Both the position numbers and the translations under genes were made by a program. A stretch of DNA of 27,508 nucleotides from IMG/VR virus record IMGVR_UViG_2690316076_000006; one strand, written 5' to 3'. This document shows, in pieces, positions 3,099 to 26,911 of this stretch. A model generated the notes under the pieces. It searched no databases. It worked only from the letters and a program-made list of their open reading frames with translations, and was not told the origin of the DNA. This stretch comes from a virus (taxonomy: Duplodnaviria; Heunggongvirae; Uroviricota; Caudoviricetes). Each line of letters begins with the position of its first letter. Position 1 is the stretch's first letter.

Positions 3099-3577
3099 TA
3101 TCCCGCCCCCGTCATACCCGTGAATTTAGTCGCCATACTGCCAGCCTTACCGATGAGCGATTCCGCCTGTTTACCGATATCGCCATAAAGCGCGGCCAGT
3201 GATTCATCAACGCGGGTGAGTGACAGCGTAAAATCAATTTTCCGGGGTGTGCCGTCTGCAAAGAAAATACTCCCTGTTTCACTCACCTTGCTGATGACAT
3301 ACATGCCGTAAATCATGCCGGTGCCATCCAGCAACGGCCACGCCCGGCCTTCCTCTGCCATCAGCCTGAGCGTGGTCATCGTCAGCTTGCCTCCGGTCAG
3401 TTCGGGATAAAGCACGCCGGCAAGCGTAATGTTTTCCTCACCCACACCGAGAAACTGAAAGGCATCCCGTTTACCGATACGGGAATTTGACGGCCAGCGA
3501 TAATCTGATTCACGCTGCATGGTCTGGTGTGGCAGCGTCTGGCGCATAAAAACAAACATACCTAACGCGAGCATCAT
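3098..3577 (-). CDS. U: Tail protein gpU, 159 aa
   Basis: Length and synteny match P2 gpU, immediately downstream of the tape measure gene. Confidence 0.9.
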   Translation of the reverse strand: MMLALGMFVFMRQTLPHQTMQRESDYRWPSNSRIGKRDAFQFLGVGEENITLAGVLYPELTGGKLTMTTLRLMAEEGRAWPLLDGTGMIYGMYVISKVSETGSIFFADGTPRKIDFTLSLTRVDESLAALYGDIGKQAESLIGKAGSMATKFTGMTGAG

Positions 3578-3591
3578 TTTTCGTCACCTCC

Positions 3592-6039
3592 TTAACCGTC
3601 ATGCATCATGCTGGCACGGGCGCGCGCACGTTTATCCCGCTCGTATTTTTCGAGCGCATCCTGTAACTGGCGGTCGAGCTGAGTCCCCGGCGCAGTACCG
3701 CCCGTCAGACTGATGTGATATTCGTTTTTACTCTGGTCCACATAAGAGCGGCCAGCCGGTGCCGTAACCGGCTGATAAGCCTGATAGCCTGCATAAGAGC
3801 TGGTCGCCGGAATATAACCACCGGTGCCATACGTGGCGGCATGAGTTCTGGCGGCGGTCTGGTCAAGTGTGTCTGACTCTTTGTTGATAACACCGAGTTT
3901 TTCCAGTACCCAGTCAATACCACTGCGCAGTTTGTTGAACGCATTAAGCGGCAGCATCAACGCGTCAGCCAGTGCCTGCCCGAACATGACGCCCGTGTCA
4001 CGGCAACGGTTCAGGGTGTCCTGGGTGGCTTTGACCGGGGCAATCAGGTTTTTAAACCACTGCCACGCGGCCTGTAACTTTTCACCCAGCCAGTCAAACA
4101 CCGGTTTAAGTGGCGTGAACAGTTCCCCCACCGGCGCAAATGCCGCTTTCAGCCCTTCAATCACACCGCCAAAAAATGCGCTGACAGGCTCCCAGTATTT
4201 ACGGATAAGTAACGCCCCGGCGACAATGGCGGCCACCACGGCCACAACCGGCCAGCTAATCGCTCCGATGGCGGTCATAACAGCACTGCCAACCGTCGTG
4301 AAGATTGCCCCCATTGCGCCTGCTGCCGCGATGATGGCATTGATGCCGGTGATAACCGGCCAGGCTACGAGGCCAATGGCACCGATGACACCAATCAGTG
4401 CCAGTGCACCACCGACAATAAGTCCGATGGTTGACGCCAGTGATTTGTTTTTCTGGATCCAGCCGTCGAGTTTTAACACATACTTTGTGGCCGTCTGCGT
4501 GAGCTTACGCAGTGCGCCTTCCTGCTGGTCAAACAGGTCAGTCCCCACCGCCTCATAAGCGGACTGAAACTCTTTAAAGTCACCGCCGAGGTTGTCCTGC
4601 ATGATATTTACCAGCTCGGCGGTCTTCCCGTCTGAGGCTTTAAACGCAGCGGTCAGTTTGTCCAGCTTTCCGGTTGAGGCGGCAGTCATCAGCACGGCGG
4701 CGGCTGAGCTGGCCTCCTCCCCGAAAATGGTTTTCATGTATTCAGCCTGCTGGGCAGTACCGAGCTGGTTTTTCTCAAAACTGGCCTGCATTTCTTTCAG
4801 AATGGTAAATACTGGTCGGGTATTCCCCTTACTGTCTGAGGTTTTTACGCCAAGCTCTTTGAGTGCATCCCATGCTTTTCCCGTTGGTGCCTGCAGGCGA
4901 CTTAACACGGCACGGCTTCCCGTCCCCGCCATTGAGCCTGTGATTTTTGCATCATGCAGCGCCCCGACCATTGCAGCGGTTTCTTCAATGCTGACACCGG
5001 CATTTTTTGCCACAGGTGCGGCATAGGTCAGCGCATCGCTCATGCCGTCAAAATCGGCGGCGGTTTTGTTCATCGTCATGGAGAGAACATCCCCGATATG
5101 AGCGATCTTATCGTTTGAAAGCTGAAAGGCGGATTTCATCCCCATCAACAGGGCGGCGTTTTCTTCCATCGTGCGACGGTTCGCCAGCGCCATATTCAGC
5201 GTGACCGGCGTTGCCGCCTGAATGGCATCAACATCCCCACCGGCTTTTGCAATAATAATCTGCGCACCGGCTGCATCATCTGCCGAGGCTGCGGTATTGT
5301 CGCCGAGCTGACGCGCCTGCTTGCGTAGTGCAGCCATTTCGGCGGAGTCTTTTGCCACACCGAGCACAGCCTGTAATTCTGAGTTTTTCTGCGCAAATTC
5401 ATAACCGGGCATCAGCAGCTTAACACCGGCCATCGTTCCCGCCGCCGCAATCCCCACACCGGCAGCGCCCACTGAGGCCATATTTCCGGCCAGCTCCTTT
5501 CCTGCCTGATAACGCTGTTTTACTGCGTTAAGTTTTGCCTGTTGCGCACTGACACGCGTCAGCGCGTCACGCTGCCGGTTAAGCTGTGCGGTGGTTTCAC
5601 TGATACGGTTTTTCAGCCCCTGCTCATCATGTGCAAGATTGCGGGTATTAATTCCCACAGCGGCCAGTTCCCGCTGCTGGCGTTTAACGGAATCCGTCAG
5701 GCGGTTATATTTCGCCTGTAAGTCCTCCGCCGCACGCTTTGCGGATTCCAGCACTTTCGCCTGAGCACGGGTCGGACGTTCAGTGTTTTTAAACTGTGTT
5801 GCAAGGGCTTCGGCCTCCTGCCGTGCCTTTTCAAGTGCATGACCAGTCACGGCAAGCTGTGCACTGGTCTTGCGGAATCCCTCAATACGGGATGCCTGCC
5901 CGTTCAGCTCGCGCAGTGATTTTTGTGTTTCCCGGATATCCCCCGACAGCGACTTACTCGCTGTGCGGATGGATTTAAACGGGCGGGATGCCTGGTCAAC
6001 AGCCCTGAGCAATACCTGTAATTTTACATTGTTACTCAT
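3592..6039 (-). CDS. T: Tail tape measure protein gpT, 815 aa
   Basis: 815 aa as in P2 gpT; Ala/Gly-rich, coiled-coil-rich N-terminal region with a hydrophobic central segment typical of tape measure proteins. Confidence 0.92.
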   Translation of the reverse strand: MSNNVKLQVLLRAVDQASRPFKSIRTASKSLSGDIRETQKSLRELNGQASRIEGFRKTSAQLAVTGHALEKARQEAEALATQFKNTERPTRAQAKVLESAKRAAEDLQAKYNRLTDSVKRQQRELAAVGINTRNLAHDEQGLKNRISETTAQLNRQRDALTRVSAQQAKLNAVKQRYQAGKELAGNMASVGAAGVGIAAAGTMAGVKLLMPGYEFAQKNSELQAVLGVAKDSAEMAALRKQARQLGDNTAASADDAAGAQIIIAKAGGDVDAIQAATPVTLNMALANRRTMEENAALLMGMKSAFQLSNDKIAHIGDVLSMTMNKTAADFDGMSDALTYAAPVAKNAGVSIEETAAMVGALHDAKITGSMAGTGSRAVLSRLQAPTGKAWDALKELGVKTSDSKGNTRPVFTILKEMQASFEKNQLGTAQQAEYMKTIFGEEASSAAAVLMTAASTGKLDKLTAAFKASDGKTAELVNIMQDNLGGDFKEFQSAYEAVGTDLFDQQEGALRKLTQTATKYVLKLDGWIQKNKSLASTIGLIVGGALALIGVIGAIGLVAWPVITGINAIIAAAGAMGAIFTTVGSAVMTAIGAISWPVVAVVAAIVAGALLIRKYWEPVSAFFGGVIEGLKAAFAPVGELFTPLKPVFDWLGEKLQAAWQWFKNLIAPVKATQDTLNRCRDTGVMFGQALADALMLPLNAFNKLRSGIDWVLEKLGVINKESDTLDQTAARTHAATYGTGGYIPATSSYAGYQAYQPVTAPAGRSYVDQSKNEYHISLTGGTAPGTQLDRQLQDALEKYERDKRARARASMMHDG

Positions 6040-8295: not shown

Positions 8296-8889
8296 CTATT
8301 TGTCCCGGTTGGCTAAGGGATGACACAATTTGTTCTTTGTCGCTGATGAGGGGAATTTTTTATAGAGCGTGGACAGGCCAATATCAAAAATCAGCGCCAC
8401 GCGTTGACGTGATTCACCCGCAGCCAGCAACCGTCCTGCCTGTTCCCACTCACTCGCGGTGAGCTTCGGACGTCTGCCACCAATACGACCTTTGGCTCTG
8501 GCCGCTTCCAGTCCGGCGCGAGTCCGCTCAACAATGAGTTCTCGCTCCATTTCAGCCAGGGCACCCATCACATGAAAGAAAAAACGCCCCATCGGCGTGC
8601 TGGTATCAATGGCATCCGTCAGGCTGCGAAAATTAATGCCGCGTTCGCGCAGCTCCTCAACCAGAATGACCAGATGCCGCATACTACGCCCCAGCCGGTC
8701 CAGCTTCCAGACTACCAGTGTATCCCCCTCCGATAATGTCCTGAGCAGTTTTTTCAGCCCCGGCCTGTCGGACTTCGTGCCGCTGATTTTATCCTCAAAA
8801 ATCAGCTCACATCCTGCGCACTCCAGCGCGTTACGCTGCAATTCCGTGTTCTGGTCATTTGTTGACACGCGTACATAGCCAATAAGCAT
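8296..8889 (-). CDS. Serine-recombinase DNA invertase (Gin/Pin/Cin/Hin family), about 197 aa
   Basis: Translation MLIGYVRVSTNDQNTELQRNALECAGCE...GDTLVVWKLDRLGRSMRHL...PMGRFFFHVMGALAEMERELIVERT closely resembles Gin/Pin, with the catalytic serine in the YVRVS motif; start taken at the second ATG (8889), which has AGGGG 6 nt upstream. Confidence 0.9.
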   Translation of the reverse strand: MLIGYVRVSTNDQNTELQRNALECAGCELIFEDKISGTKSDRPGLKKLLRTLSEGDTLVVWKLDRLGRSMRHLVILVEELRERGINFRSLTDAIDTSTPMGRFFFHVMGALAEMERELIVERTRAGLEAARAKGRIGGRRPKLTASEWEQAGRLLAAGESRQRVALIFDIGLSTLYKKFPSSATKNKLCHPLANRDK

Positions 8890-8944
8890 GAGCATCCCCC
8901 TGAATAAAAACCGGAGATGATGCCAGTTGCCCGTTATCTCTGCA

Positions 8945-8970
8945 TTTTCATAAACGTTGGTTTGGGGGAA
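8945..8970. repeat. Invertase crossover site, left (gix/pix-like 26 bp): ttttcataaacgttggtttgggggaa
   Basis: 21 of 26 positions identical to the reverse complement of the site at 10751-10776; resembles gix/hix sites; next to the invertase gene and encoding the GLGE motif of the tail fibre. Confidence 0.7.
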
Positions 8971-9306
8971 TTGGCTCTGGCTGGCGCAACAACCGGCGCT
9001 ATGTTGGTGAATGGGTATGTAGCAATTCCATTAATTATTTCTGGCGTTCGGAGACCACTTATTATCCAGTGGGGAGTGGGGCAGTTTGGGGGAAGTCTGG
9101 GGGATGATGCGGGATATTTAAACAATTTCCCTTTCGCTTTTCCGTCGGCGTGCTACGTGATGGTTGCCAGCCACGTGGGGCATACACCTTCGGGTGCCGG
9201 AATACTATCTGCTTCCGCAATCACAAAAAGCGGCTTTCGTGGTTTTTCCAGCGTAGTGACTGCCGCAAATCCTGTATCGGGCTGTTATGTTGCTATAGGA
9301 GGGTGA
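8947..9306 (+). CDS. Alternative (currently silent) tail-fibre C-terminal variable cassette Hv'
   Basis: Open frame runs through the crossover site (FINVGLGELALAGATTGAM...) to a stop at 9306; it shares the GLGE junction motif with H and would be fused to the constant part of H after inversion. The track ORF extends to an upstream ATG at 8917. Confidence 0.6.
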   Translation, partial: FINVGLGELALAGATTGAMLVNGYVAIPLIISGVRRPLIIQWGVGQFGGSLGDDAGYLNNFPFAFPSACYVMVASHVGHTPSGAGILSASAITKSGFRGFSSVVTAANPVSGCYVAIGG

Positions 9307-9307
9307 T

Positions 9308-9742
9308 GTGTTTTTTAGTCCATCTTTAAATATTTTTGTGAATCCTGCGCTTAAGGATGACTACATCAATGTAAATTCATGGCCAGATGATGCTGTTGAA
9401 GTTGATGAGCAGGTGTATATTGAGTTTTCCGGATTACCGCCGAAAGGAAAAATCCGTATCGCTGGGGAAAATGGTTTTCCTGCATGGTCTGAAATTCCAC
9501 CACCAACGCATGAGGAACAGATTGCCGCAGCCGAATTGAAAAAACAGCAATTGATTAATCAGTCCAACGAATATATGAATACCAAGCAATGGCCTGGTAA
9601 AGCGGCTATTGGTCGTCTGAAAGGTGAGGAACTGGCGCAATATAATTTGTGGCTGGATTATCTGGACGCACTGGAACTGGTTGATACCTCCAGTGCTCCA
9701 GATATTGAATGGCCTACGCCTCCGGCAGTTCAGGCCAGATGA
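9308..9742 (+). CDS. Tail fibre assembly chaperone, alternative cassette (Tfa'), 144 aa
   Basis: C-terminal DIEWPTPPA motif typical of tail fibre assembly proteins (P2 gpG / Mu U family); follows Hv'; convergent with, and overlapping, the other tfa gene. Confidence 0.8.
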   Translation: MFFSPSLNIFVNPALKDDYINVNSWPDDAVEVDEQVYIEFSGLPPKGKIRIAGENGFPAWSEIPPPTHEEQIAAAELKKQQLINQSNEYMNTKQWPGKAAIGRLKGEELAQYNLWLDYLDALELVDTSSAPDIEWPTPPAVQAR

Positions 9743-14149: not shown

Positions 14150-14569
14150 CTAACGGTCGAGGTGAGCCAGAATAATCTCTTCAATCATCTGCACATCCTC
14201 ACCGGTAAAGCCGAGCAGAGGACGCGCCGGATAATCAATTTTCTTACCGTCTTTCCGGTTTTCTTCCGACAGACCGAACTGATGCACACTGGCGATTTTC
14301 GGTGACTTCCCGCCGTAAAATTCCATTGCTGCCTGTTCCGGGCTGGCGCGGATATGCAAAAAACGACTGGTGATAAGTTTCGCAAACATTTTTCGCTTAA
14401 CACGACCGGTCTTTTTTCTGGCGCTCTGCTGCTGGCGTGGCGCATAGGGTGTGCCGTCCGGGGCTTTCTGTGCCATCACCCGGCGCTGCTGACTCTGCCG
14501 CAGACGTTTCGCCAGTTCTGCACTCAGTCGCCGACGCCCTGACGGTGACAGCGACTCAATCAGTCCGGT
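14150..14569 (-). pseudogene. S: Tail completion/virion morphogenesis gene S, 5'-truncated at an internal deletion junction
   Basis: C-terminal ~135 aa (…QKAPDGTPYAPRQQQSARKKTGRVKRKMFAKLITSRFLHIRASPEQ…ILAHLDR) match the P2 gpS family; the N-terminus is replaced by out-of-frame N-derived sequence; the track ORF starts at TTG; the only in-frame ATG is at 14476. Confidence 0.7.
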
Positions 14570-14822
14570 CACCGGCGGTGTCGGTGGTGCTGGCGATGGA
14601 GCCGGTGACACCAATACCAATTTTTTCCCCTTTCATTTCGCTGACCGGCACAATGTTGATGCGGGTCAGAAAGTCAGAGGACTCCTGCATGGTGTTCATC
14701 AGGGTCTGGGTGACCGACGGTTCAACGGTGAATTTTTTCGACACATCACCGGCGTCGATGCCGTTCAGTTCGGCAACACGGGACAGGTAGGCATTAAATT
14801 TAAAGCGGGTTTCCTGGCGCAT
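14556..14822 (-). pseudogene. N: Major capsid protein gene N, truncated after about 84 codons (88-aa remnant)
   Basis: MRQETRFKFNAYLSRVAELNGIDAGDVSKKFTVEPSVTQTLMNTMQESSDFLTRINIVPVSEMKGEKIGIGVTGSIASTTDTAG matches the P2 gpN N-terminus as I recall it, then runs into 4 unrelated codons and a stop; full gpN is about 357 aa. Confidence 0.8.
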
Positions 14823-14880
14823 AGTTTTTCCTGAAATTAAGGGTTAATCGTGAAGGTTTTCCCGGACTGACTGACGCCGG

Positions 14881-15735
14881 TCAGCAGTTCGTCATCAGGG
14901 CGTCACCGCCACCGCCGGTGGCTTTGCTGCGGCGCTGCTGGGTCAGACTTTCGGTGTGGTCGAGACTGTTTTTCAGGCGGGTGAATGCCTGACTAGTTTC
15001 ATCCGCCCTGTCAGTCACATCCTGCTTAAGTGCCGAAAAGGCGGTTTCCATCTCAGCAAGGCGCTGCTCAGTGGCGCTCAGTTTTTCCTGCACATGCTCA
15101 GCGACAGCGGTCACCGCTTCATGCACGTCATTCAGACGGGCGTCATCGCTGGCCTGTTTGCGGCCAAAAATGGATTTCACCTTTTCGGTCAGGGCGGTGA
15201 ACACGGTTTCAGGCAGGTCTTCAAATTCCAGCTCAACAGGCGTTGCCACTGAAATCAGGTTTTCAGGGCTTAATTTGAAGCGGTTCAGAGGGTTGTGTTT
15301 TGCCGTGCGGCAGAATTCCAGGTATTCCGTGCCGAGGCTTGCCGGGTCATCGGTGACGGCCAGACCCACCAGATAACATTTGCCTGTATTGGCAAAGTTC
15401 GGCTGAATTTCCATTGAGGTATAGACCTTCTGCGCGGCCTTGTTCATCGCGATAAGGTCATCGGTCGGGGTGATTTTCGCAAACAGCGCCCATTTGCCTT
15501 TCAGCGCCGAATCATCGTCAATCTTTTCGGCCTTCAGTTCGGCCACATCGCCATAACGTTTAAAAATACCGTCAGGCAGGATGCCGCGCAGATGTTCCAG
15601 GTTAATGCGGCAACCATAGACACGCGGGTCAAAGGTTTCGGCCATTTCCTGAATATCCTGCGCACTGATGACACGCCCGTCACAGGTGTCACCCTCAACG
15701 CCGATACGAAAGAATTTTGAGACTTTTTTTGCCAT
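14881..15735 (-). CDS. O: Capsid scaffolding protein gpO, 284 aa
   Basis: Translation from the internal Met (MAKKVSKFFRIGVEGDTCDGR...) matches P2 gpO; the track ORF is N-terminally over-extended. Confidence 0.9.
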   Translation of the reverse strand: MAKKVSKFFRIGVEGDTCDGRVISAQDIQEMAETFDPRVYGCRINLEHLRGILPDGIFKRYGDVAELKAEKIDDDSALKGKWALFAKITPTDDLIAMNKAAQKVYTSMEIQPNFANTGKCYLVGLAVTDDPASLGTEYLEFCRTAKHNPLNRFKLSPENLISVATPVELEFEDLPETVFTALTEKVKSIFGRKQASDDARLNDVHEAVTAVAEHVQEKLSATEQRLAEMETAFSALKQDVTDRADETSQAFTRLKNSLDHTESLTQQRRSKATGGGGDALMTNC

Positions 15736-15908
15736 TGTCAGGAGTCCTGAATAGTGATTAGAGGAGTCACATGTCGGCATCAGTTTCCCGACGATGCGCA
15801 TCCTCCGCCATCAGTCCCGGATGGCTTATCACTGACACAACAGCACCTTAGCGAATCGCGGGGCGCGACTCAGTAGCCTTGCCGTGTATTCATCACGGCG
15901 AGGTATTC

Positions 15909-17681
15909 ATGACCATCACCACAGACACCACTCTTTTACACGACCCGCGTCGTCAGGCGGCGCTGCTGTACTGGCAGGGATTTTCCGTGCCGCAGATTGC
16001 CGCCATGTTGCAGATGAAACGCCCGACGGTGCAGAGCTGGAAACAGCGCGACGGCTGGGACAGCGTTGCCCCCATCAGCCGTGTCGAAATGAGTCTGGAA
16101 GCGCGGCTGACCCAGCTCATCATCAAACCGCAGAAAACCGGCGGTGACTTCAAGGAAATTGACCTGCTCGGACGCCAGATTGAACGACTGGCACGGGTCA
16201 ACCGTTACAGTCAGACCGGCAACGAGGCAGACCTTAATCCGAACGTCGCTAACCGCAACAAAGGCGGGCGTCGCAAACCGAAAAAGAATTTTTTCAGTGA
16301 CGAGGCCATCGAAAAGCTGGAGCAGATTTTCTTTGAGCAGTCTTTCGAATATCAGTTGCACTGGTATCGCGCCGGGCTTGAGCACCGCATCCGCGATATC
16401 CTGAAATCCCGCCAGATTGGCGCGACGTTTTATTTTTCCCGCGAGGCGCTGCTGCGCGCCCTGAAAACCGGTCATAACCAGATTTTTCTGTCGGCCAGTA
16501 AAACGCAGGCGTATGTGTTCCGCGAATACATCATCGCCTTTGCCCGGCTGGTTGACGTTGACCTGACCGGTGACCCGATTGTCCTGGGCAATAACAGCGC
16601 AAAACTGATTTTTCTCGGCACCAACTCCAACACCGCACAGAGCCATAACGGCGACCTGTACGTCGATGAGATTTTCTGGATCCCGAATTTTCAGGTACTG
16701 CGTAAGGTGGCATCAGGTATGGCCTCACAGAGTCACCTGCGCTCGACCTATTTCTCCACCCCGTCCACGCTGGCGCACGACGCCTACCCGTTCTGGTCGG
16801 GTGAACTGTTCAACCGGGGTCGCGCCAGCGCCGCCGAACGCGTGGAAATCGACGTCAGTCATAACGCCCTTGCCGGAGGTCTTCTCTGTGCGGACGGCCA
16901 GTGGCGGCAGATTGTCACCATTGAGGACGCGCTGAAAGGCGGCTGCACGCTGTTCGACATTGAGCAGCTCAAACGTGAAAACAGCGCCGACGATTTTAAA
17001 AACCTGTTCATGTGTGAATTTGTTGACGACAAGGCGTCGGTGTTCCCGTTCGAGGAGCTGCAACGCTGCATGGTCGACACGCTGGAAGAATGGGAAGACT
17101 ATGCGCCGTTTGCCGCGAATCCGTTCGGCTCCCGCCCGGTATGGATTGGTTACGACCCGTCACACCGTGGCGACAGTGCCGGATGCGTGGTGCTGGCACC
17201 GCCGGTGGTGGCCGGTGGCAAATTCAGAATACTTGAGCGTCACCAGTGGAAAGGCATGGACTTTGCCACTCAGGCTGAATCCATCCGCAAACTCACCGAA
17301 AAATACAACGTCGAATACATCGGTATTGATGCCACCGGCCTCGGTGTCGGCGTGTTCCAGCTCGTGCGCTCGTTCTATCCCGCCGCGCGCGACATCCGCT
17401 ACACGCCGGAAATGAAAACCGCAATGGTGCTCAAGGCAAAAGACGTCATCCGCCGTGGCTGTCTGGAATATGACGTCAGCGCCACCGACATCACCAGCTC
17501 GTTTATGGCTATCCGCAAGACCATGACCAGCAGCGGACGCAGCGCCACCTATGAGGCCAGCCGCAGCGAGGAAGCCAGCCACGCCGATCTCGCCTGGGCG
17601 ACCATGCACGCCCTGTTAAATGAGCCACTCACCGCGGGTATCAGCACTCCGCTGACATCCACCATTCTGGAGTTTTACTGA
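15909..17681 (+). CDS. P: Terminase large subunit gpP, 590 aa
   Basis: MTITTDTTLLHDPRRQAALLYWQGF... matches P2 gpP; divergent from O as in P2; the track ORF is over-extended by 10 codons. Confidence 0.92.
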   Translation: MTITTDTTLLHDPRRQAALLYWQGFSVPQIAAMLQMKRPTVQSWKQRDGWDSVAPISRVEMSLEARLTQLIIKPQKTGGDFKEIDLLGRQIERLARVNRYSQTGNEADLNPNVANRNKGGRRKPKKNFFSDEAIEKLEQIFFEQSFEYQLHWYRAGLEHRIRDILKSRQIGATFYFSREALLRALKTGHNQIFLSASKTQAYVFREYIIAFARLVDVDLTGDPIVLGNNSAKLIFLGTNSNTAQSHNGDLYVDEIFWIPNFQVLRKVASGMASQSHLRSTYFSTPSTLAHDAYPFWSGELFNRGRASAAERVEIDVSHNALAGGLLCADGQWRQIVTIEDALKGGCTLFDIEQLKRENSADDFKNLFMCEFVDDKASVFPFEELQRCMVDTLEEWEDYAPFAANPFGSRPVWIGYDPSHRGDSAGCVVLAPPVVAGGKFRILERHQWKGMDFATQAESIRKLTEKYNVEYIGIDATGLGVGVFQLVRSFYPAARDIRYTPEMKTAMVLKAKDVIRRGCLEYDVSATDITSSFMAIRKTMTSSGRSATYEASRSEEASHADLAWATMHALLNEPLTAGISTPLTSTILEFY

Positions 17682-18715
17682 TGAGCAAGAAAAAAGGGAA
17701 AACACCGCGACCAGCGGCAAAAAAAATGACCGCCAGCGCCCCGAAAATGGAGGCATTCACCTTTGGTGAGCCGGTGCCGGTACTCGACCGCCGTGACATT
17801 CTGGATTACGTCGAATGCATCAGTAACGGCAGATGGTATGAGCCACCGGTCAGCTTTACCGGTCTGGCAAAAAGCCTGCGTGCTGCCGTGCATCACAGCT
17901 CACCGATTTACGTCAAACGTAATATTCTGGCCTCGACATTTATCCCGCATCCGTGGCTTTCCCAGCAGGATTTCAGCCGCTTTGTACTGGATTTTCTGGT
18001 GTTCGGTAATGCGTTTCTGGAAAAGCGTTACAGCACCACCGGTAAGGTCATCAGACTGGAAACCTCACCGGCAAAATATACCCGCCGTGGTGTGGCAGAG
18101 GATGTTTACTGGTGGGTGCCGTCCTTCAACGAGCCGACAGCCTTCGCGCCCGGTTCCGTGTTTCACCTGCTGGAGCCGGATATTAATCAGGAGTTGTACG
18201 GCCTGCCGGAATATCTCAGCGCCCTTAACTCTGCCTGGCTGAATGAGTCGGCCACGCTGTTCCGCCGCAAGTATTACGAAAATGGCGCACATGCCGGATA
18301 CATCATGTACGTCACCGATGCCGTGCAGGATCGCAACGATATCGAAATGCTTCGCGAAAACATGGTGAAGTCAAAAGGCCGCAATAACTTTAAAAATCTG
18401 TTTCTCTATGCCCCGCAGGGGAAAGCCGACGGCATTAAAATTATCCCGCTCAGTGAAGTGGCGACGAAGGACGATTTTTTTAATATCAAAAAAGCCAGCG
18501 CCGCTGACCTGCTGGACGCACACCGCATCCCCTTTCAGTTGATGGGCGGCAAGCCGGAGAACGTCGGGTCGCTGGGTGATATTGAGAAAGTGGCAAAGGT
18601 CTTTGTCCGCAATGAGCTTATCCCGTTACAGGACAGGATCCGCGAGATAAACGGCTGGCTCGGCCAGGAGGTCATCCGCTTTAAAAACTACTCACTGGAC
18701 ACTGACAACGGCTGA
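17681..18715 (+). CDS. Q: Portal protein gpQ, 344 aa
   Basis: Length and synteny match P2 gpQ; start overlaps the P stop. Confidence 0.92.
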   Translation: MSKKKGKTPRPAAKKMTASAPKMEAFTFGEPVPVLDRRDILDYVECISNGRWYEPPVSFTGLAKSLRAAVHHSSPIYVKRNILASTFIPHPWLSQQDFSRFVLDFLVFGNAFLEKRYSTTGKVIRLETSPAKYTRRGVAEDVYWWVPSFNEPTAFAPGSVFHLLEPDINQELYGLPEYLSALNSAWLNESATLFRRKYYENGAHAGYIMYVTDAVQDRNDIEMLRENMVKSKGRNNFKNLFLYAPQGKADGIKIIPLSEVATKDDFFNIKKASAADLLDAHRIPFQLMGGKPENVGSLGDIEKVAKVFVRNELIPLQDRIREINGWLGQEVIRFKNYSLDTDNG

Positions 18716-18720
18716 ACATC

Positions 18721-18742
18721 GCCGCCTGCGGGCGGCTTTTTT
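18721..18742 (+). terminator. Intrinsic terminator after Q
   Basis: GC stem gccgcc/ggcggc with a 4-nt loop, followed by T6, 6 bp after the Q stop. Confidence 0.6.
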
Positions 18743-18883
18743 ACATCCCGTCATCACGCCCTCACACACTCACCACCGCACAAAACAGCCCGCAGGCAAA
18801 CCAACGCCCAACGGACAGACTAAGCGCCGTCACGACGCGCTGAGACGCTGAAAAAATAAAATCAGCACCACCGCCAGCGCGCA

Positions 18884-18902
18884 GTGCTTTCCCCGCCTCG
18901 CC
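18884..18902. other. cos site (19-nt cohesive end sequence)
   Basis: gtgctttccccgcctcgcc is the reverse complement of the P2 cohesive end GGCGAGGCGGGGAAAGCAC as I recall it; sits next to Q as in P2. Confidence 0.85.
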
Positions 18903-19352
18903 CGCCCGCTTCGTGGGGCTGTTTTAATGCAGTTGCATGAACACTCCAAGAGCACGCCAGCACTGGCGGCGCTCACACGTAACGGGGAAGGAAAACGCAT
19001 GCGATTCGATGCAGTACTGCATGCGGAGCTGAAAAAGGCAGAAAATACTGAAAAAACGCATAAAAAACCGGCATTCAGGTCACCGGTTTGAGTCAGCTTC
19101 ATTGTGGTTACTTGTCGCGCAATGCGCCAATAATACTAGTAAGGCAACAAGTGGCAACAATCAGCAAAAAAACCGTTGTCCACGGATTCTCATAAACGAG
19201 AGATAACATATTGATATTGATCCTTTTATTGGTACATTATAATGCGACATTATCGGTCTTTAACAACCTGGCTGAGTTCTATCTTACCAATTTTCGTGAT
19301 AAGCATTTAATCAATTACGTAGTATGGTTAAAGGCACACAAAGGAGAAAAAT

Positions 19353-19403
19353 ATGCGAATGCATTTTTTAGACAACCGACTTCCAAAAATCTTTTCAACG
19401 TAA
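19353..19403 (+). CDS. 16-codon mini-ORF (MRMHFLDNRLPKIFST) with a consensus Shine-Dalgarno, upstream of the cargo gene
   Basis: AAGGAG at 19341-19346, 6 nt before the ATG; lies in the AT-rich leader about 110 bp downstream of a -10-like TATAAT (19238-19243). Function unknown; could be a leader peptide or spurious. Confidence 0.3.
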   Translation: MRMHFLDNRLPKIFST

Positions 19404-19609
19404 TACAGAAAATCACAAACATCTATCAATTACAAATTAACAAACATCAACGCTACCAGCTTAATTGCAGCAAAGATCAGGAGATAACATCACTACAACA
19501 ATAAATCAAAAACTGTTAGATTTGGCCAGAAATGCCAACTCCACACATAACTTCACGCAGATACATAGTTCATAATTAAACAATTTATCGACTTGGAGCG
19601 AATAGAATA

Positions 19610-20614
19610 ATGTCAAAAGAAAACACACCAATGGAACCAAGCATAAATATAAAGGCAGACTTCACTGAGATATTAAATTCATCGCCAAAGGGCGTTAAGT
19701 ATATATTCAATATTCTCTTCGGAAAAAAACACGCAGAGGCCGAGAGAAGGATTAGGCTATCGAACGCTCAAGATTATGCAGATATGAAAAAAATCATATC
19801 TGGAGAAGCAACATATGATAATGAGAAGAACCAAATAACACCTTCTAACCAAGACATTAAGTCATTAATTGTTAGCGCATTGCAGGATGAGGAAATTACA
19901 AATCTTATAGGCTGCATCAGAAGCGCCTCAGAATACATTAAAGATGATACTGATAACGATGGTGGTCCATCCCAAGACTTTATTAACAGATGGCGAAGCG
20001 ATGCGAAACTAATCAGTGAACAGTCTATCCAGTACGTTTGGGGGCGAATTCTAGCGGAAGAAATAAACACACCTCAAACTGTAAGCGTAAGAACCCTTGA
20101 TGTAATAAAAAACCTATCAAAAGAAGAGGCTGAATATTTCTCAGAGGCACTTGACTTTATATTTTACGATTCTTATTTGATTGATAATGGAGATACCAAA
20201 AATCCATTCATCTCACCAGGAAAAGGTCATAAATTGAGAGATGCAGGATTAATAGTTACTTTTACTCCTGGAATGTATCGCTCCGGGACATGGGATACAC
20301 AACGTTTTGTTCTCAGCGGAGCCACCATACCAAAAGTATTCTACATCAGCAGTTCTGATAAGTATTACTTTATCGATGCAGGCAAAATAACTGACGACCC
20401 TAAAATTCTGGTATGGGAGTTAACAAATGCCGGCAAAGAATTATATGAAATTCTAAAGAAAGATCATAAAACCAAAGAAGAATCAGTAAAAAAAATTATT
20501 GACTGGATATTAAATAGCACTAAAGCTTCTGAGTTTTACTATGGAGATATTGTTAAGCATTCAGACAATAGCCTGTCAGTTGAGAACTTACTGACTATAA
20601 GCAGAAATAGATAG
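19610..20614 (+). CDS. Hypothetical protein, 334 aa, low-GC cargo gene at the P2 cos-A (old/tin) variable locus; candidate phage-defence/exclusion protein of unrecognised family
   Basis: Long ORF with GGAG 11 nt upstream; markedly AT-rich codon usage relative to the rest of the prophage; occupies the position of P2 orf91/tin/old; no P-loop or other motif I can recognise by eye. Confidence 0.8.
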   Translation: MSKENTPMEPSINIKADFTEILNSSPKGVKYIFNILFGKKHAEAERRIRLSNAQDYADMKKIISGEATYDNEKNQITPSNQDIKSLIVSALQDEEITNLIGCIRSASEYIKDDTDNDGGPSQDFINRWRSDAKLISEQSIQYVWGRILAEEINTPQTVSVRTLDVIKNLSKEEAEYFSEALDFIFYDSYLIDNGDTKNPFISPGKGHKLRDAGLIVTFTPGMYRSGTWDTQRFVLSGATIPKVFYISSSDKYYFIDAGKITDDPKILVWELTNAGKELYEILKKDHKTKEESVKKIIDWILNSTKASEFYYGDIVKHSDNSLSVENLLTISRNR

Positions 20615-21053
20615 AACATCAAAACAAGACCCCATATCTAATCAGTATACGAACAGGCAAGAACATCCGTTTTTGTCTGTTCCTTTCAAAACAACTACCC
20701 GCATTTCCATAATACTAAAAGATATTTTTCCCTTTATTCAAACCCACAATAATGTTTACGCTCAATAATAAAAAACATCAGAATATTTTTTAACTCCTAC
20801 ACAGCTTGTTTCTCAATCCCGTTGTGTATATCATCAGGACCAAGACATTTCACACCAGTGTTATCCATCACTTGTTCAGAAATCATCGCTACTTTTATGA
20901 CAGAGTAGTGACTCTATATACTAAGAATTACGACCATCCTTATTATCCTGACTTTCATCAATAAAGAAAATAATACCGCCAGCTTTATCTCTTGGTGAAT
21001 AAGGAGGGCCAGCGCTAACCAGATAACTGCCTATATGAATTAACTTGTTGTCA

Positions 21054-23339
21054 TTAGCTCCACTCCATTTCTGTTGAATACCCCGGCCACTCATCAGCGA
21101 CCGGATACGTGAATGTTTTCCCGTCATAATTTACGGTCGCGCCACGCGCCAGCGCCTCAAGCTCCCATCGCTGCGGCCTGATACCGTTCTGAGCAAGGTC
21201 AACGCGGACACGGGTAATTTGCATTCTTTCCGACCGGGTCAGTCTGGCCGATGGTGCAATTTCATGTGGTTTTAACGGGCTTCCGTTTCTCTGCTGACGA
21301 TTTGGTGTTCTCAGCCCGTATTTTAATGCGCCCCTGAGCGCCCTCACGACCTCCGGGTCATTCCATTCGATAACACCGTCATCTACCAGATTAAGCACTG
21401 CTGCGGCGTGCTCAGAAGGTGTGGGAGCCGGTAACGAAGTATCGCCACAGGTGAGCTTTCCACAGTTATTGACAGGACTCCGAGGCGCGGCGATGCCGCT
21501 TTTTAAAGTCAAAGGCTCAACGACCGGAACTTTCGGCACAATGCGCCAGTCCGTCGTTCTGGTGATATGAATATGACGCGCGCCGAGATGCGGCGCGTAA
21601 ATGCCGACCACTCTCTCGACTTCTTCCTCGTACTCGTTAACGTCATCCGACAGACTACGGGCGACCCTGACAGTCTGACAATCGCGCGGGACATTTGCCC
21701 CGCCCTGCGCGCTGATATACAGCGCAAAATCACCACTGTCTGCGGCGGCGCGTGCAGCCTCGACGCGCTCGTCAAACTCATCAGCAATGCTGACGCCGCG
21801 AGGCAATTTGCGTAGTTCACGGTAAGCCCCCATTGTCGGCAGGCCAACCGTTTTAAATTGCGGAATGCGCCACGTTGACGCCCATGCGGTAACAGCCGCT
21901 GCAGTGTCTTTCAGCGGCCTGCCGGTGTCGTTATCGAGCTGACCATCCAGTGCATAGCCGTCGATGTTTTTTGAAATGTATTTCGCGATATATCCCGCAG
22001 CACCGCCCCGGTTAAGGTGTTTTGCCTGAAAACGGTTTCGCGCGGCTCCTCTTTCGTCGCCATCCTCTTTGAGCGCATAGCGACGCATGATTTCGATAAT
22101 CTGGTTACGCTGGCGTGGATGACAAAAAAGCATCATATGCCAGTGCGGCGTTCCGTCGTGGTGTGGCTCGACGACTCGCAAACCGTAGACCTGTAAATCA
22201 TTATCCTTGAATGCCGTGCGCATCAGGCTCCAGATACGGCAGAGATAACGCTGCGCATCCTTTGGATTAAATGCCTCATCGTTCCAGCCGTGATTAAGCT
22301 GAACGGTTTTACTTTCGCCTTTTCCGACCTGACGTGTCGGGTGATACTTTGACGGCGCGGTCAGCGTGATAAACATCCCCACATCACCCTCTGCGGCGGC
22401 GTAACGCTCAATACCGGCAATGGTGTTCATCAGCTCCATCCGGCGAATTTCAGGATTAGAAATACTGCCCATCACCTTACTGATAAGGTCGATGCGCTCG
22501 CCGGTTTCCCTGTTTTCAAGGTCACACGATTTAAGAAATTCCAGATTTGCCTGGCGGCGCGCACGCACATCACGAATGGCGTGTTTACTGGCATAAGGAG
22601 AACGGTCTTTATTGACCTCCCCGACAGCTATCAGTAACGCCTCATGCCAGCGCATACGCTGGCCTTTAAGCTGATGAGTCCACCACTCATCGTTAAACAG
22701 GCGGGCAATGGCAGAATATGCCTGCCTCGTGGTCATCTGTCCTTTACGGTATTTTTTCCAGTAGAGCGGGGAAATATTGAAAGCACGTGCAGCGCCAGCA
22801 ACATGACCATACAGGTGAGCCTGCGCCTCATCCGTAAACAGCGATTCTTTTTCACCATGCGCATCAACCCATGCATCGCAGAGTTCCTCATACATCATGA
22901 AAAGCTGCGATGAGATACGGGCGGCAAACTTTTTCAGCTCCTTGTCATTCATTCCCGGCAGGCGCGCATAGTGGTCACGCTCTGCCAGAAACAACAACGA
23001 CGCGTCGGTGTTCATTTCATGGCGCTGATTCACACGCTCAATGCGCGGCCATAAACGACGCTGAAAAGTGGATGTGAGGAAATAAAACCCGTGCACCGGG
23101 CTTTTATTGCGCCGGATGTATTCATAGCGTGAAGTAAACAGCGAGCGCAAAAAGTAAGGCAGGCGGTTAATCGTGGATAAAACACCTTGCACCTGACGCA
23201 TCTCGTCACGTGTAAGGGGTCTTTCGCGCCCGACGGCCTCGCGTGGCGCGTTCCATGCATAAGCACCGGTAAACGTCTTACCGGTGCCTGCGGCAAATGC
23301 TGACGGAGGGACAAAATGCCCGGAGGCTTTAACGGCCAT
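21054..23339 (-). CDS. A: Replication initiation protein gpA (rolling-circle nickase), 761 aa
   Basis: Translation from the internal Met (MAVKASGHFVPPSAFAAGTGK...) matches P2 gpA across its length. Confidence 0.93.
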   Translation of the reverse strand: MAVKASGHFVPPSAFAAGTGKTFTGAYAWNAPREAVGRERPLTRDEMRQVQGVLSTINRLPYFLRSLFTSRYEYIRRNKSPVHGFYFLTSTFQRRLWPRIERVNQRHEMNTDASLLFLAERDHYARLPGMNDKELKKFAARISSQLFMMYEELCDAWVDAHGEKESLFTDEAQAHLYGHVAGAARAFNISPLYWKKYRKGQMTTRQAYSAIARLFNDEWWTHQLKGQRMRWHEALLIAVGEVNKDRSPYASKHAIRDVRARRQANLEFLKSCDLENRETGERIDLISKVMGSISNPEIRRMELMNTIAGIERYAAAEGDVGMFITLTAPSKYHPTRQVGKGESKTVQLNHGWNDEAFNPKDAQRYLCRIWSLMRTAFKDNDLQVYGLRVVEPHHDGTPHWHMMLFCHPRQRNQIIEIMRRYALKEDGDERGAARNRFQAKHLNRGGAAGYIAKYISKNIDGYALDGQLDNDTGRPLKDTAAAVTAWASTWRIPQFKTVGLPTMGAYRELRKLPRGVSIADEFDERVEAARAAADSGDFALYISAQGGANVPRDCQTVRVARSLSDDVNEYEEEVERVVGIYAPHLGARHIHITRTTDWRIVPKVPVVEPLTLKSGIAAPRSPVNNCGKLTCGDTSLPAPTPSEHAAAVLNLVDDGVIEWNDPEVVRALRGALKYGLRTPNRQQRNGSPLKPHEIAPSARLTRSERMQITRVRVDLAQNGIRPQRWELEALARGATVNYDGKTFTYPVADEWPGYSTEMEWS

Positions 23340-23604
23340 GTGAGCCAAAAGCCTCTGAACAACGCTTGCTGAGTTGCTCAACCTGCGCGTTTAAATCAGC
23401 AAAAGACTTTGCGCTTCCGGTAAGAATATCGTGATGCATCATGCCGGAAACGAGCTGGCTTAATTTCGGGTAATAACCAACCACCGCCAGCCATTCCTGA
23501 CCGGCGTTTTTACCGCTTTCAGCTCTCTTTTTCTCGTGGAGAATAAACTGAAAGCTGTCACTGGTAACGACATAACGTTCGCCAATTTCAATACGAATAC
23601 TCAT
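23329..23604 (-). CDS. P2 early-operon small protein (orf82/83-like), 91 aa
   Basis: MSIRIEIGERYVVTSDSFQFILHEKKRAESGKNAGQEWLAVVGYYPKLSQL... recalled as a P2 early ORF immediately upstream of A. Confidence 0.75.
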   Translation of the reverse strand: MSIRIEIGERYVVTSDSFQFILHEKKRAESGKNAGQEWLAVVGYYPKLSQLVSGMMHHDILTGSAKSFADLNAQVEQLSKRCSEAFGSHGR

Positions 23605-25897: not shown

Positions 25898-26911
25898 ATG
25901 GCAATCAAAAAACTCGATGATGGTCGATATGAAGTGGACATCCGCCCTACTGGACGTAATGGAAAACGCATCCGTAGGAAGTTTGATAAGAAAAGCGAAG
26001 CTGTCGCTTTCGAGAAATACACGTTGTACAACCACCACAATAAAGAATGGCTATCAAAACCAACAGACAAGCGACGTCTGTCGGAGCTGACACAGATCTG
26101 GTGGGATTTAAAGGGTAAACACGAAGAGCATGGGAAATCTAATCTTGGAAAAATTGAAATCTTCACAAAAATAACGAATGACCCATGCGCATTTCAAATT
26201 ACGAAATCGCTTATCAGCCAGTACTGCGCCACCCGAAGAAGTCAGGGTATTAAACCTTCGAGTATCAATCGTGATTTAACATGTATTAGCGGCATGTTTA
26301 CAGCCCTGATTGAAGCGGAGTTATTCTTTGGTGAGCACCCTATCAGAGGGACAAAAAGGCTTAAGGAGGAAAAACCAGACACAGGCTATCTCACGCAGGA
26401 AGAAATTGCCTTACTGCTTGCTGCTCTTGACGGCGACAACAAAAAGATTGCGATTCTTTGCCTGAGTACTGGAGCACGTTGGGGAGAAGCAGCTCGTTTG
26501 AAAGCAGAAAATATCATCCATAACCGCGTCACGTTTGTTAAAACGAAAACAAACAAACCACGCACCGTCCCGATCTCAGAGGCTGTTGCCAAAATGATCG
26601 CGGATAACAAACGAGGTTTTTTATTCCCTGATGCTGATTACCCTCGCTTCAGACGAACAATGAAAGCAATAAAACCGGATTTGCCAATGGGGCAAGCCAC
26701 ACATGCACTAAGGCACAGCTTTGCCACTCATTTCATGATTAATGGAGGAAGTATTATCACGCTACAACGGATACTAGGTCACACGCGGATTGAGCAAACT
26801 ATGGTTTACGCTCATTTTGCGCCAGAGTACCTTCAGGACGCCATTTCTCTTAATCCGCTAAGAGGTGGTACTGAGGCCGAGAGTGTCCACACAGTGTCCA
26901 CAGTAGAGTAA
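25898..26911 (+). CDS. int: Tyrosine integrase, 337 aa
   Basis: 337 aa as in P2 Int; C-terminal catalytic-region motifs (HALRHSFATHF...LGH...YAH) typical of tyrosine recombinases; about 80 bp from the right att core. Confidence 0.93.
   Translation: MAIKKLDDGRYEVDIRPTGRNGKRIRRKFDKKSEAVAFEKYTLYNHHNKEWLSKPTDKRRLSELTQIWWDLKGKHEEHGKSNLGKIEIFTKITNDPCAFQITKSLISQYCATRRSQGIKPSSINRDLTCISGMFTALIEAELFFGEHPIRGTKRLKEEKPDTGYLTQEEIALLLAALDGDNKKIAILCLSTGARWGEAARLKAENIIHNRVTFVKTKTNKPRTVPISEAVAKMIADNKRGFLFPDADYPRFRRTMKAIKPDLPMGQATHALRHSFATHFMINGGSIITLQRILGHTRIEQTMVYAHFAPEYLQDAISLNPLRGGTEAESVHTVSTVE

Follow-up and report, generated by a model that had tools for sequence, protein, structure and literature searches.

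What fills the AT-rich gap between cos and gene A of a P2-like prophage, and is the protein encoded there a means of defence against other phages? The question is raised by a 27,508-nucleotide (nt) stretch of viral DNA (IMG/VR record IMGVR_UViG_2690316076_000006), referred to here in its full length as the window, in which this gap carries a gene for a protein of 334 amino acids (aa). The gene belongs to the DUF2806 family (Pfam PF10987), and the P2-like prophage has acquired the segment around it horizontally, as cargo with one sizeable gene, at the gpQ/cos-gpA locus that is known as a defence hotspot. The gene probably serves in defence and is of a type already described: the family has a name, one member has been validated, DefenseFinder holds a corresponding system, and DUF2806 has previously been seen in the P2 hotspot.

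A preliminary description of the window, made by eye, had correctly placed a 334-aa open reading frame (ORF) at 19,610-20,614 (it starts with ATG and lies on the plus strand), but had considered its family unrecognised. This second point did not survive the profile search against Pfam that had been proposed as a check, in which DUF2806 scored 68.9 bits against a gathering cut-off of 24.5 (E 7.3e-19) and was the only significant match of the protein. The match is limited to residues 96-183, corresponding to model positions 15-101 of 221. A first protein search returned 55 direct relatives, the best of which, 'DUF2806 domain-containing protein [Salmonella enterica]', is 99% identical and falls in a Salmonella cluster with 76 member sequences, followed by relatives from Enterobacter (75-78% identity) and from Pseudomonas, Achromobacter and others (35-45%). 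Homologues named by their sources are all called 'DUF2806 domain-containing protein', save a few labelled 'hypothetical protein'. A family profile built from 43 sequences matched 8,343 clusters at 50% identity with E values up to 1e-3, of which 1,634 had E values up to 1e-30. Nearly all of these matches are 290-360 aa long and align over their whole length (positions ~1-330), so that the 334-aa protein has the full-length architecture of the family. The high novelty once accorded to the gene depended on the family being unrecognised and has lost its support too, as the combination 'RVT_1 + hypothetical + DUF2806' was already tabulated for the E. coli P2 hotspot by Rousset et al. (PMC9122126). 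Other collections gave less. The NCBIfam model TIGR03899 scored 58 bits, below its cut-off of 155.65, and the best PHROGs hit (E 0.057) was not usable. Annotation with PADLOC, also suggested as a check, yielded no usable defence match (best E 0.004), and PADLOC-DB 2023 has no Belisama model.

Conservation within the family is concentrated in a core with the pattern RW.x.A..IS...Q..WG.ILA.E..P.S.S.RTLD...N.S..EA..F, followed by DAGLI and by a C-terminal LT.AG.EL. R161 is found without exception in alignments of 43-59 sequences, and W144, E151, G213 and G275 almost without exception. When the gene was compared with two Enterobacter orthologues from the same slot, the ratio of non-synonymous to synonymous substitution rates (dN/dS) was 0.08, which identifies the ORF as a real gene; between the two Enterobacter orthologues the ratio was 0.18. 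Judged by these substitution rates, the DUF2806 gene is under strong purifying selection. Its composition is that of the surrounding cargo, with a GC content of 0.363 and a GC content at third codon positions of 0.33, compared with 0.56 at third positions of gene A.

The segment itself is set apart by base composition. GC content is 0.372, 0.364, 0.360 and 0.342 in the four 500-nt bins covering 19,001-21,000, whereas the remaining bins have a mean of 0.527 (standard deviation 0.048, minimum 0.422), which places the segment at a z of about -3.5. At a resolution of 100 nt, GC is 0.60 up to 18,999, 0.43-0.45 at 19,000-19,199 and 0.33 from 19,200 onwards, with recovery on the right at about 21,050-21,100; both flanks lie at 0.52-0.60, compared with 0.34-0.37 over ~19,000-21,053. 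On its left the AT-rich segment is bounded by the P2 cos core at 18,884-18,902 and on its right by the gene A stop at 21,054; the locus is made up as follows.

17,681-18,715, plus strand: portal gene (gpQ), a 344-aa ORF of the backbone that borders the hotspot on the left; orthologous loci have PF04860 (Phage_portal) at the same position.
18,721-18,736: intrinsic terminator after the portal gene.
18,884-18,902: P2-type cos core, an exact 19-nt match to the reverse complement of GGCGAGGCGGGGAAAGCAC.
19,062-19,091, minus strand: terminator-like hairpin, AACCGG..CCGGTT then TTTTTT, downstream of the 33-aa ORF.
19,108-19,209, minus strand: conserved 33-aa hydrophobic membrane ORF, MLSLVYENPWTTVFLLIVATCCLTSIIGALRDK, adjoining cos and usually unannotated.
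19,210-19,609, plus strand: AT-rich upstream region, with a conserved block (19,200-19,400) and then a variable proximal part.
19,610-20,614, plus strand: DUF2806-family gene (PF10987), a Belisama-type candidate defence gene, 334 aa.
20,615-21,053: AT-rich DNA (GC 0.35) that fills the 439 nt from the end of the DUF2806 gene to that of gene A and has no conserved ORF.
21,054-23,381, minus strand: replication gene A, a 775-aa ORF of the backbone that borders the hotspot on the right; orthologous loci have PF05840 (Phage_GPA).

The cos core was placed by means of GGCGAGGCGGGGAAAGCAC, which we take to be the cos 19-mer of P2, and the cos region is conserved across the P2-like prophages of E. coli and Enterobacter. 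E. coli matches to the gene A region carry the annotation replication endonuclease. A megablast search with 18,700-21,400 against 5,426 complete E. coli genomes matched the flanks in 2,162 of them and covered the cargo in none; in genomes that share the flanks the slot is filled by DUF3850/ASCH, GNAT, DUF6864 and other genes. The slot is thus variable, because E. coli genomes with the same flanks hold other cargos and none holds this one. The order of terminase gene (15,879-17,681, plus strand), portal gene, cos 19-mer and gene A, together with these flank matches, agrees with the initial assignment to the variable cos-A locus of P2, just as the GC profile agrees with the description of the insert as about 2 kb of AT-rich DNA. 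The gpQ-gpA locus was defined as a P2 defence hotspot by Rousset et al. 2022 (PMC9122126), and the cargo fits that definition in lying between portal/cos and gene A and in differing from what related prophages carry there.

Homologues of the gene are repeatedly found in mobile elements. Orthologues at 75-84% identity fill the same portal/cos-gpA slot in Enterobacter cloacae and E. hormaechei, and likewise in two contigs of metagenomic or read-archive origin. Apparently complete P2-like prophages with an orthologue in this slot are represented by the loci L011, L016 and L034, and in a further E. hormaechei locus (L015) the head genes have been lost and the DUF2806 cargo kept. Distant members occur as solitary accessory genes in Mu-like prophages of Desulfovibrio piger and of Ignatzschineria, in the latter among the tail genes and on the opposite strand. 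In Yersinia enterocolitica and Halodesulfovibrio, HP1/P2-like prophages carry a member at their end. The Achromobacter member adjoins VbhA and a SIR2-HerA pair, another member is found in an island beside smpB, adjoining type I restriction systems, and the P. putida member lies within an island with resolvases. A full-length homologue was found in none of 50,697 isolated phage genome records.

In Vibrio cholerae the family has a member of demonstrated function. Darracq et al. tested 88 cassettes of the chromosomal integron of V. cholerae N16961 for defence, and Belisama, a DUF2806 protein encoded by a single-gene cassette, was experimentally validated as protecting V. cholerae (bioRxiv 10.1101/2024.07.02.601686). 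At a multiplicity of infection of 10 Belisama cultures underwent strong, unrecoverable lysis and the phage was not amplified; the system was toxic at full induction. Homologues, defined there by a BLASTP E value below 1e-5 and a coverage of at least 50%, were reported from 70 genera of Pseudomonadota (bioRxiv 10.1101/2024.07.02.601686). The connection to the window runs through D. piger, in which DefenseFinder reports 'Belisama on 11458_P3' (PMC12724379). The strain, FI11458, corresponds to CP169273, where prophage FI11458_P3 spans 937,985-975,773. Within this Mu-like prophage, at 947,792-948,751, lies the gene for P0204, a 'DUF2806 domain-containing protein [Desulfovibrio piger]' with which the window protein shares 32% identity over 292 residues (E 9e-31). 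By way of this sequence link the 334-aa protein likely belongs to the Belisama group. No V. cholerae protein name appears among the matches listed for it, and a scan of genome contigs gave 10 loci, none of them from Vibrio.

A more distant connection leads to Abi-alpha, the product of EF2833 in prophage 6 of Enterococcus faecalis V583, which belongs to the Pfam family Abi_alpha (PF14337, formerly DUF4393) and causes lysis about 10 min early together with cell death; its authors noted a similarity to PF10987 (PMC6356687). DUF2806 was matched by 59 of 59 diverse relatives of the window protein, and 14 of the 59 also matched Abi_alpha weakly (best E 7.8e-5), at scores below the gathering value (for example, 17.3 bits against 29). 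In P0229, the one member examined individually, the Abi_alpha match covers the conserved helical core. The window protein itself has no Abi_alpha match at E values up to 10. These profile matches indicate a distant relation between DUF2806 and Abi-alpha, at superfamily level at best, and not membership.

From its relatives we infer that the 334-aa protein would function in defence, with an abortive phenotype. The hotspot position, the DUF2806 homology to Belisama and the mobile elements and defence islands in which homologues are found all point the same way, and on our analysis the gene rather likely encodes a Belisama-type single-gene abortive-infection protein. The single-gene defence or abortive-infection function proposed at the outset is strengthened to that extent by position, homology and context, and its status as a function is still one derived from relatives. 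As we envisage it, the DUF2806 protein would act as a stand-alone sentinel that leaves phage adsorption unaffected. Once a sensitive phage is developing, the protein would make the infected cell die, or lyse too early or beyond recovery, and thereby prevent the release of progeny. The cargo DNA has a GC content of 36%, so H-NS may keep its expression low in the lysogen.

The properties of the protein bear on how such killing might proceed. It is acidic (pI 5.3), has a mass of 38 kDa and is a soluble protein without transmembrane segment, the maximum Kyte-Doolittle mean over 19 residues being 0.93. A scan for the Walker A motif was negative, in keeping with the earlier impression that no P-loop is present, and the search for an enzymatic motif, a membrane segment or a relative of solved structure was likewise without result. 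Since the protein lacks a membrane segment and a recognisable enzymatic motif, the killing step would probably be indirect, for example through disturbed timing of holin and endolysin or through disturbed membrane energisation. An Old- or Tin-like cargo was considered and rejected because the protein has no Walker A motif and no AAA or Toprim match in Pfam; the original judgement that it resembles neither Old nor Tin is upheld by the same results.

Structure prediction followed by a structural-similarity search had also been recommended, and of the two the first gave a model and the second no informative relative. The AlphaFold2 model, made from the 43-sequence alignment, has a mean predicted local distance difference test score of 75, which exceeds 80 for residues ~90-334 and is poor for residues 1-90; in it, helices at the N-terminus precede a helical core (84-183), and the C-terminal domain is of alpha/beta type. 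Foldseek found no match to this model in the PDB below E 1e-3, and a structural search of BFVD gave one unnamed viral protein. By sequence, the best PDB match had an E value of 0.039 and was spurious, and PDB 3H35, mentioned by the authors of the Abi-alpha study, was not recovered. Weak structural matches and the motif pattern suggest that the conserved core (LRTLDVIKNLSKEEAE.F ... L.DAGLI ... W.LT.AG.EL) looks like a winged helix. More speculatively, this helical, winged-helix-like core might serve as the sensing part of the protein. A winged-helix-like core would also suit an accessory prophage protein with no part in defence, such as a DNA-binding regulator that alters host or prophage gene expression or lysogenic conversion and kills no infected cell; we regard such a role as unlikely.

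The preliminary description had called the DUF2806 gene solitary, which is contradicted by the conserved 33-aa membrane ORF at 19,108-19,209 on the minus strand, inside the same AT-rich segment. Among the loci of Enterobacter and E. coli the peptide is 84-100% identical, most of the substitutions being conservative, and in a tblastn search of 27 loci it was found in P2-like loci only. It is present in 19 of the 5,426 E. coli genomes, for instance with a retron in E. coli CE0021a. It also accompanies further genes in NZ_OZ038535, a Fic protein in Salmonella phage FSL SP-004 and another cargo in phage Midge. The ORF is absent from the annotation of the inspected records; a gene caller does predict a 33-aa gene in L035. 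On its downstream side, RNAfold places an 8-bp stem within a structure of -11.1 kcal/mol (surrounding 50 nt), followed by the T run. This hairpin (19,062-19,091) is kept in the E. coli loci and was missed by a terminator scan because its loop exceeds 8 nt. Because the ORF occurs with unrelated cargos it is not specific to DUF2806, and these comparisons mark it as a semi-core, cos-adjacent gene of a subset of P2-like phages. The peptide has no Pfam or NCBIfam family, for which reason assignment to a known toxin family was rejected; the ORF might encode a small membrane protein or correspond to a type I-toxin-like gene.

Similarity to loci with other cargos stops at ~19,244, which marks the left border of the cargo. 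Alignment of five DUF2806-bearing P2-like loci gives long invariant runs up to ~19,400 and indels beyond, so that the 365 nt preceding the DUF2806 gene are strongly conserved to ~19,400 and variable after. In these loci the ~190 nt of non-coding DNA at 19,210-19,400 are conserved above the protein gene itself. The upstream region (19,210-19,609) has no match in E. coli genomes. It contains promoter-like sites at 19,211-19,240 and a perfect TATAAT at 19,238-19,243, with TATAAT also read on the other strand, and a GGAG ribosome-binding site lies 11 nt ahead of the DUF2806 ATG. Possible roles for the 19,210-19,400 block are that of a divergent promoter region and that of a leader in the transcript of the small ORF. 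A 97-aa ORF with a TTG start (19,211-19,504) was considered as a second gene and rejected, as it is not conserved across loci.

This arrangement invites a two-part interpretation, in which DUF2806 would be the sensor and the divergent 33-aa membrane peptide a membrane-damaging or type I-toxin-like lysis effector. In all P2-like loci with the cargo the DUF2806 gene is immediately preceded by the peptide gene and the ~190 nt past its start, which are highly conserved, and the Belisama and Abi-alpha phenotypes involve lysis while the DUF2806 protein itself has no membrane segment. However, the peptide also accompanies unrelated cargos (the Fic protein of FSL SP-004, the CE0021a retron and the genes in NZ_OZ038535), its occurrence among the 27 loci is confined to P2-like ones, and Belisama is described as a single-gene cassette. 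We therefore hold such a pair to be quite improbable. The same low probability attaches to the stronger claim that this enterobacterial, P2-borne subfamily is no plain copy of Belisama, and that a distinct sensor would act with the 33-aa peptide and the conserved non-coding block as a two-part module of a new type, which triggers lysis from the end of P2-like genomes; that claim would draw on a C-terminal half too divergent for the Pfam model and on the lack of a V. cholerae protein among the listed relatives.

On the other side of the DUF2806 gene, the 439 nt at 20,615-21,053 matched neither E. coli genomes nor plasmids at the DNA level and could not be aligned by blastn to Enterobacter loci; the closest relative, L034, has 92 nt in their place. 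A gene remnant was sought here and rejected, the only trace being a weak 12-residue match to a 56-aa Enterobacter ORF with no DNA match. An Rfam search of the AT-rich island, including 19,210-19,400 and 20,615-21,053, found no known RNA family. About 44% of the cargo proper (19,245-21,053) is non-coding. In L035, a metagenomic P2-like prophage with the same DUF2806 cargo, an extra two-gene set is present at 3,257-5,255, between the portal gene and cos and hence on the opposite side of cos from the usual hotspot; it encodes a 479-aa AAA_15/AAA_21 ATPase and a 188-aa protein.

The prophage that carries the cargo is defective: M, L, X, R and the lysis genes are missing entirely, and N for the most part. 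Capsid gene N is cut to its first 85 codons (14,822-14,568, in the interval 14,568-14,881) and stands directly ahead of gpS (14,150-14,620). A tblastn search found no trace of M, L, X or a lysozyme gene in the prophage, and the gap of 260 nt between gpS and gpO leaves no room for R and the other lysis genes, which are therefore absent. These losses, the non-coding share of the cargo (including the 439 nt without relative) and the fact that AT-rich cargo of P2 remnants can be transcriptionally silent might suggest an inert relic, that is, an H-NS-silenced insert without function in a decaying prophage, but an intact ORF that is 99% identical to a Salmonella cluster of 76 sequences, strong purifying selection (dN/dS 0.08-0.18) and orthologues in the same slot of the apparently complete prophages L011, L016 and L034 make this very unlikely.

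The prophage host is most likely Salmonella enterica. A U32 peptidase gene (yegQ-like) at 1-1,362 is followed by the small RNA CyaR/RyeE at 1,445-1,530 (100.7 bits), from which we place the prophage at the yegQ-cyaR locus, and the integrase gene (25,898-26,911) lies at the opposite prophage end. A serine invertase gene (8,296-8,895, minus strand; Resolvase and HTH_7) is located between the sheath gene and the tail-fibre assembly gene G. Beside it, in inverted orientation, are a C-terminal tail-fibre fragment (8,917-9,306, plus strand) and a second tail-fibre assembly gene (9,308-9,742, plus strand), and the whole of 8,296-9,742 looks like an invertible host-range switch.

For the window, the main outcome is that a supposed orphan is relabelled as a member of a named family in a described hotspot. 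If the gene does protect, a P2-borne representative from Salmonella and Enterobacter would join the Belisama/DUF2806 group. This group is very large and has neither a solved structure nor a catalytic motif, so that its mode of action is the general question and not one specific to this locus; an enterobacterial member would be handy for studies of mechanism, with large phage panels and genetics at hand. A negative result obtained with the native promoter would not by itself be decisive, since AT-rich P2 cargo can be silenced by H-NS.

Several known systems resemble the locus to different degrees. DUF2806 genes of IncX4 plasmids belong to the same Pfam family and are likewise found on a mobile element in Enterobacteriaceae, but only the core (residues 113-210) can be aligned, at ~30% identity. 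Such a distant DUF2806 gene occurs on ~300 plasmid records from E. coli, Salmonella and Klebsiella, 296 of them typed as conjugative; the inspected plasmids (H28-H56) have the IncX4 size of ~33 kb, and the IncX4 gene has been reported as the insertion site of an mcr-1-pap2 cassette. In E. coli BL21 the low-GC Retron Eco1 cargo of a P2-like remnant is silenced by H-NS (bioRxiv 10.64898/2026.09.05.749240). That cargo, like the one described here, is low in GC and carried by a defective P2-like prophage, although its genes (reverse transcriptase, non-coding RNA and effector) are unrelated. The old and tin genes of P2, which exclude other phages, share with the DUF2806 gene the slot between gene A and cos, a strand opposite to that of gene A and AT-rich DNA. 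However, they have no sequence or domain similarity to the window protein, Old being an ATPase with a P-loop and a TOPRIM domain. Abi-alpha, similarly, is a prophage-borne single-gene system without known motif, but it is 272 aa long and comes from Firmicutes. Belisama differs in that it is an attC cassette, whereas the window gene sits in a P2 prophage hotspot with AT-rich flanks of its own, and only the first half of the Pfam model matches the window protein. Each of the two is a single gene, carried on a mobile element, with DUF2806 as its only recognisable domain.

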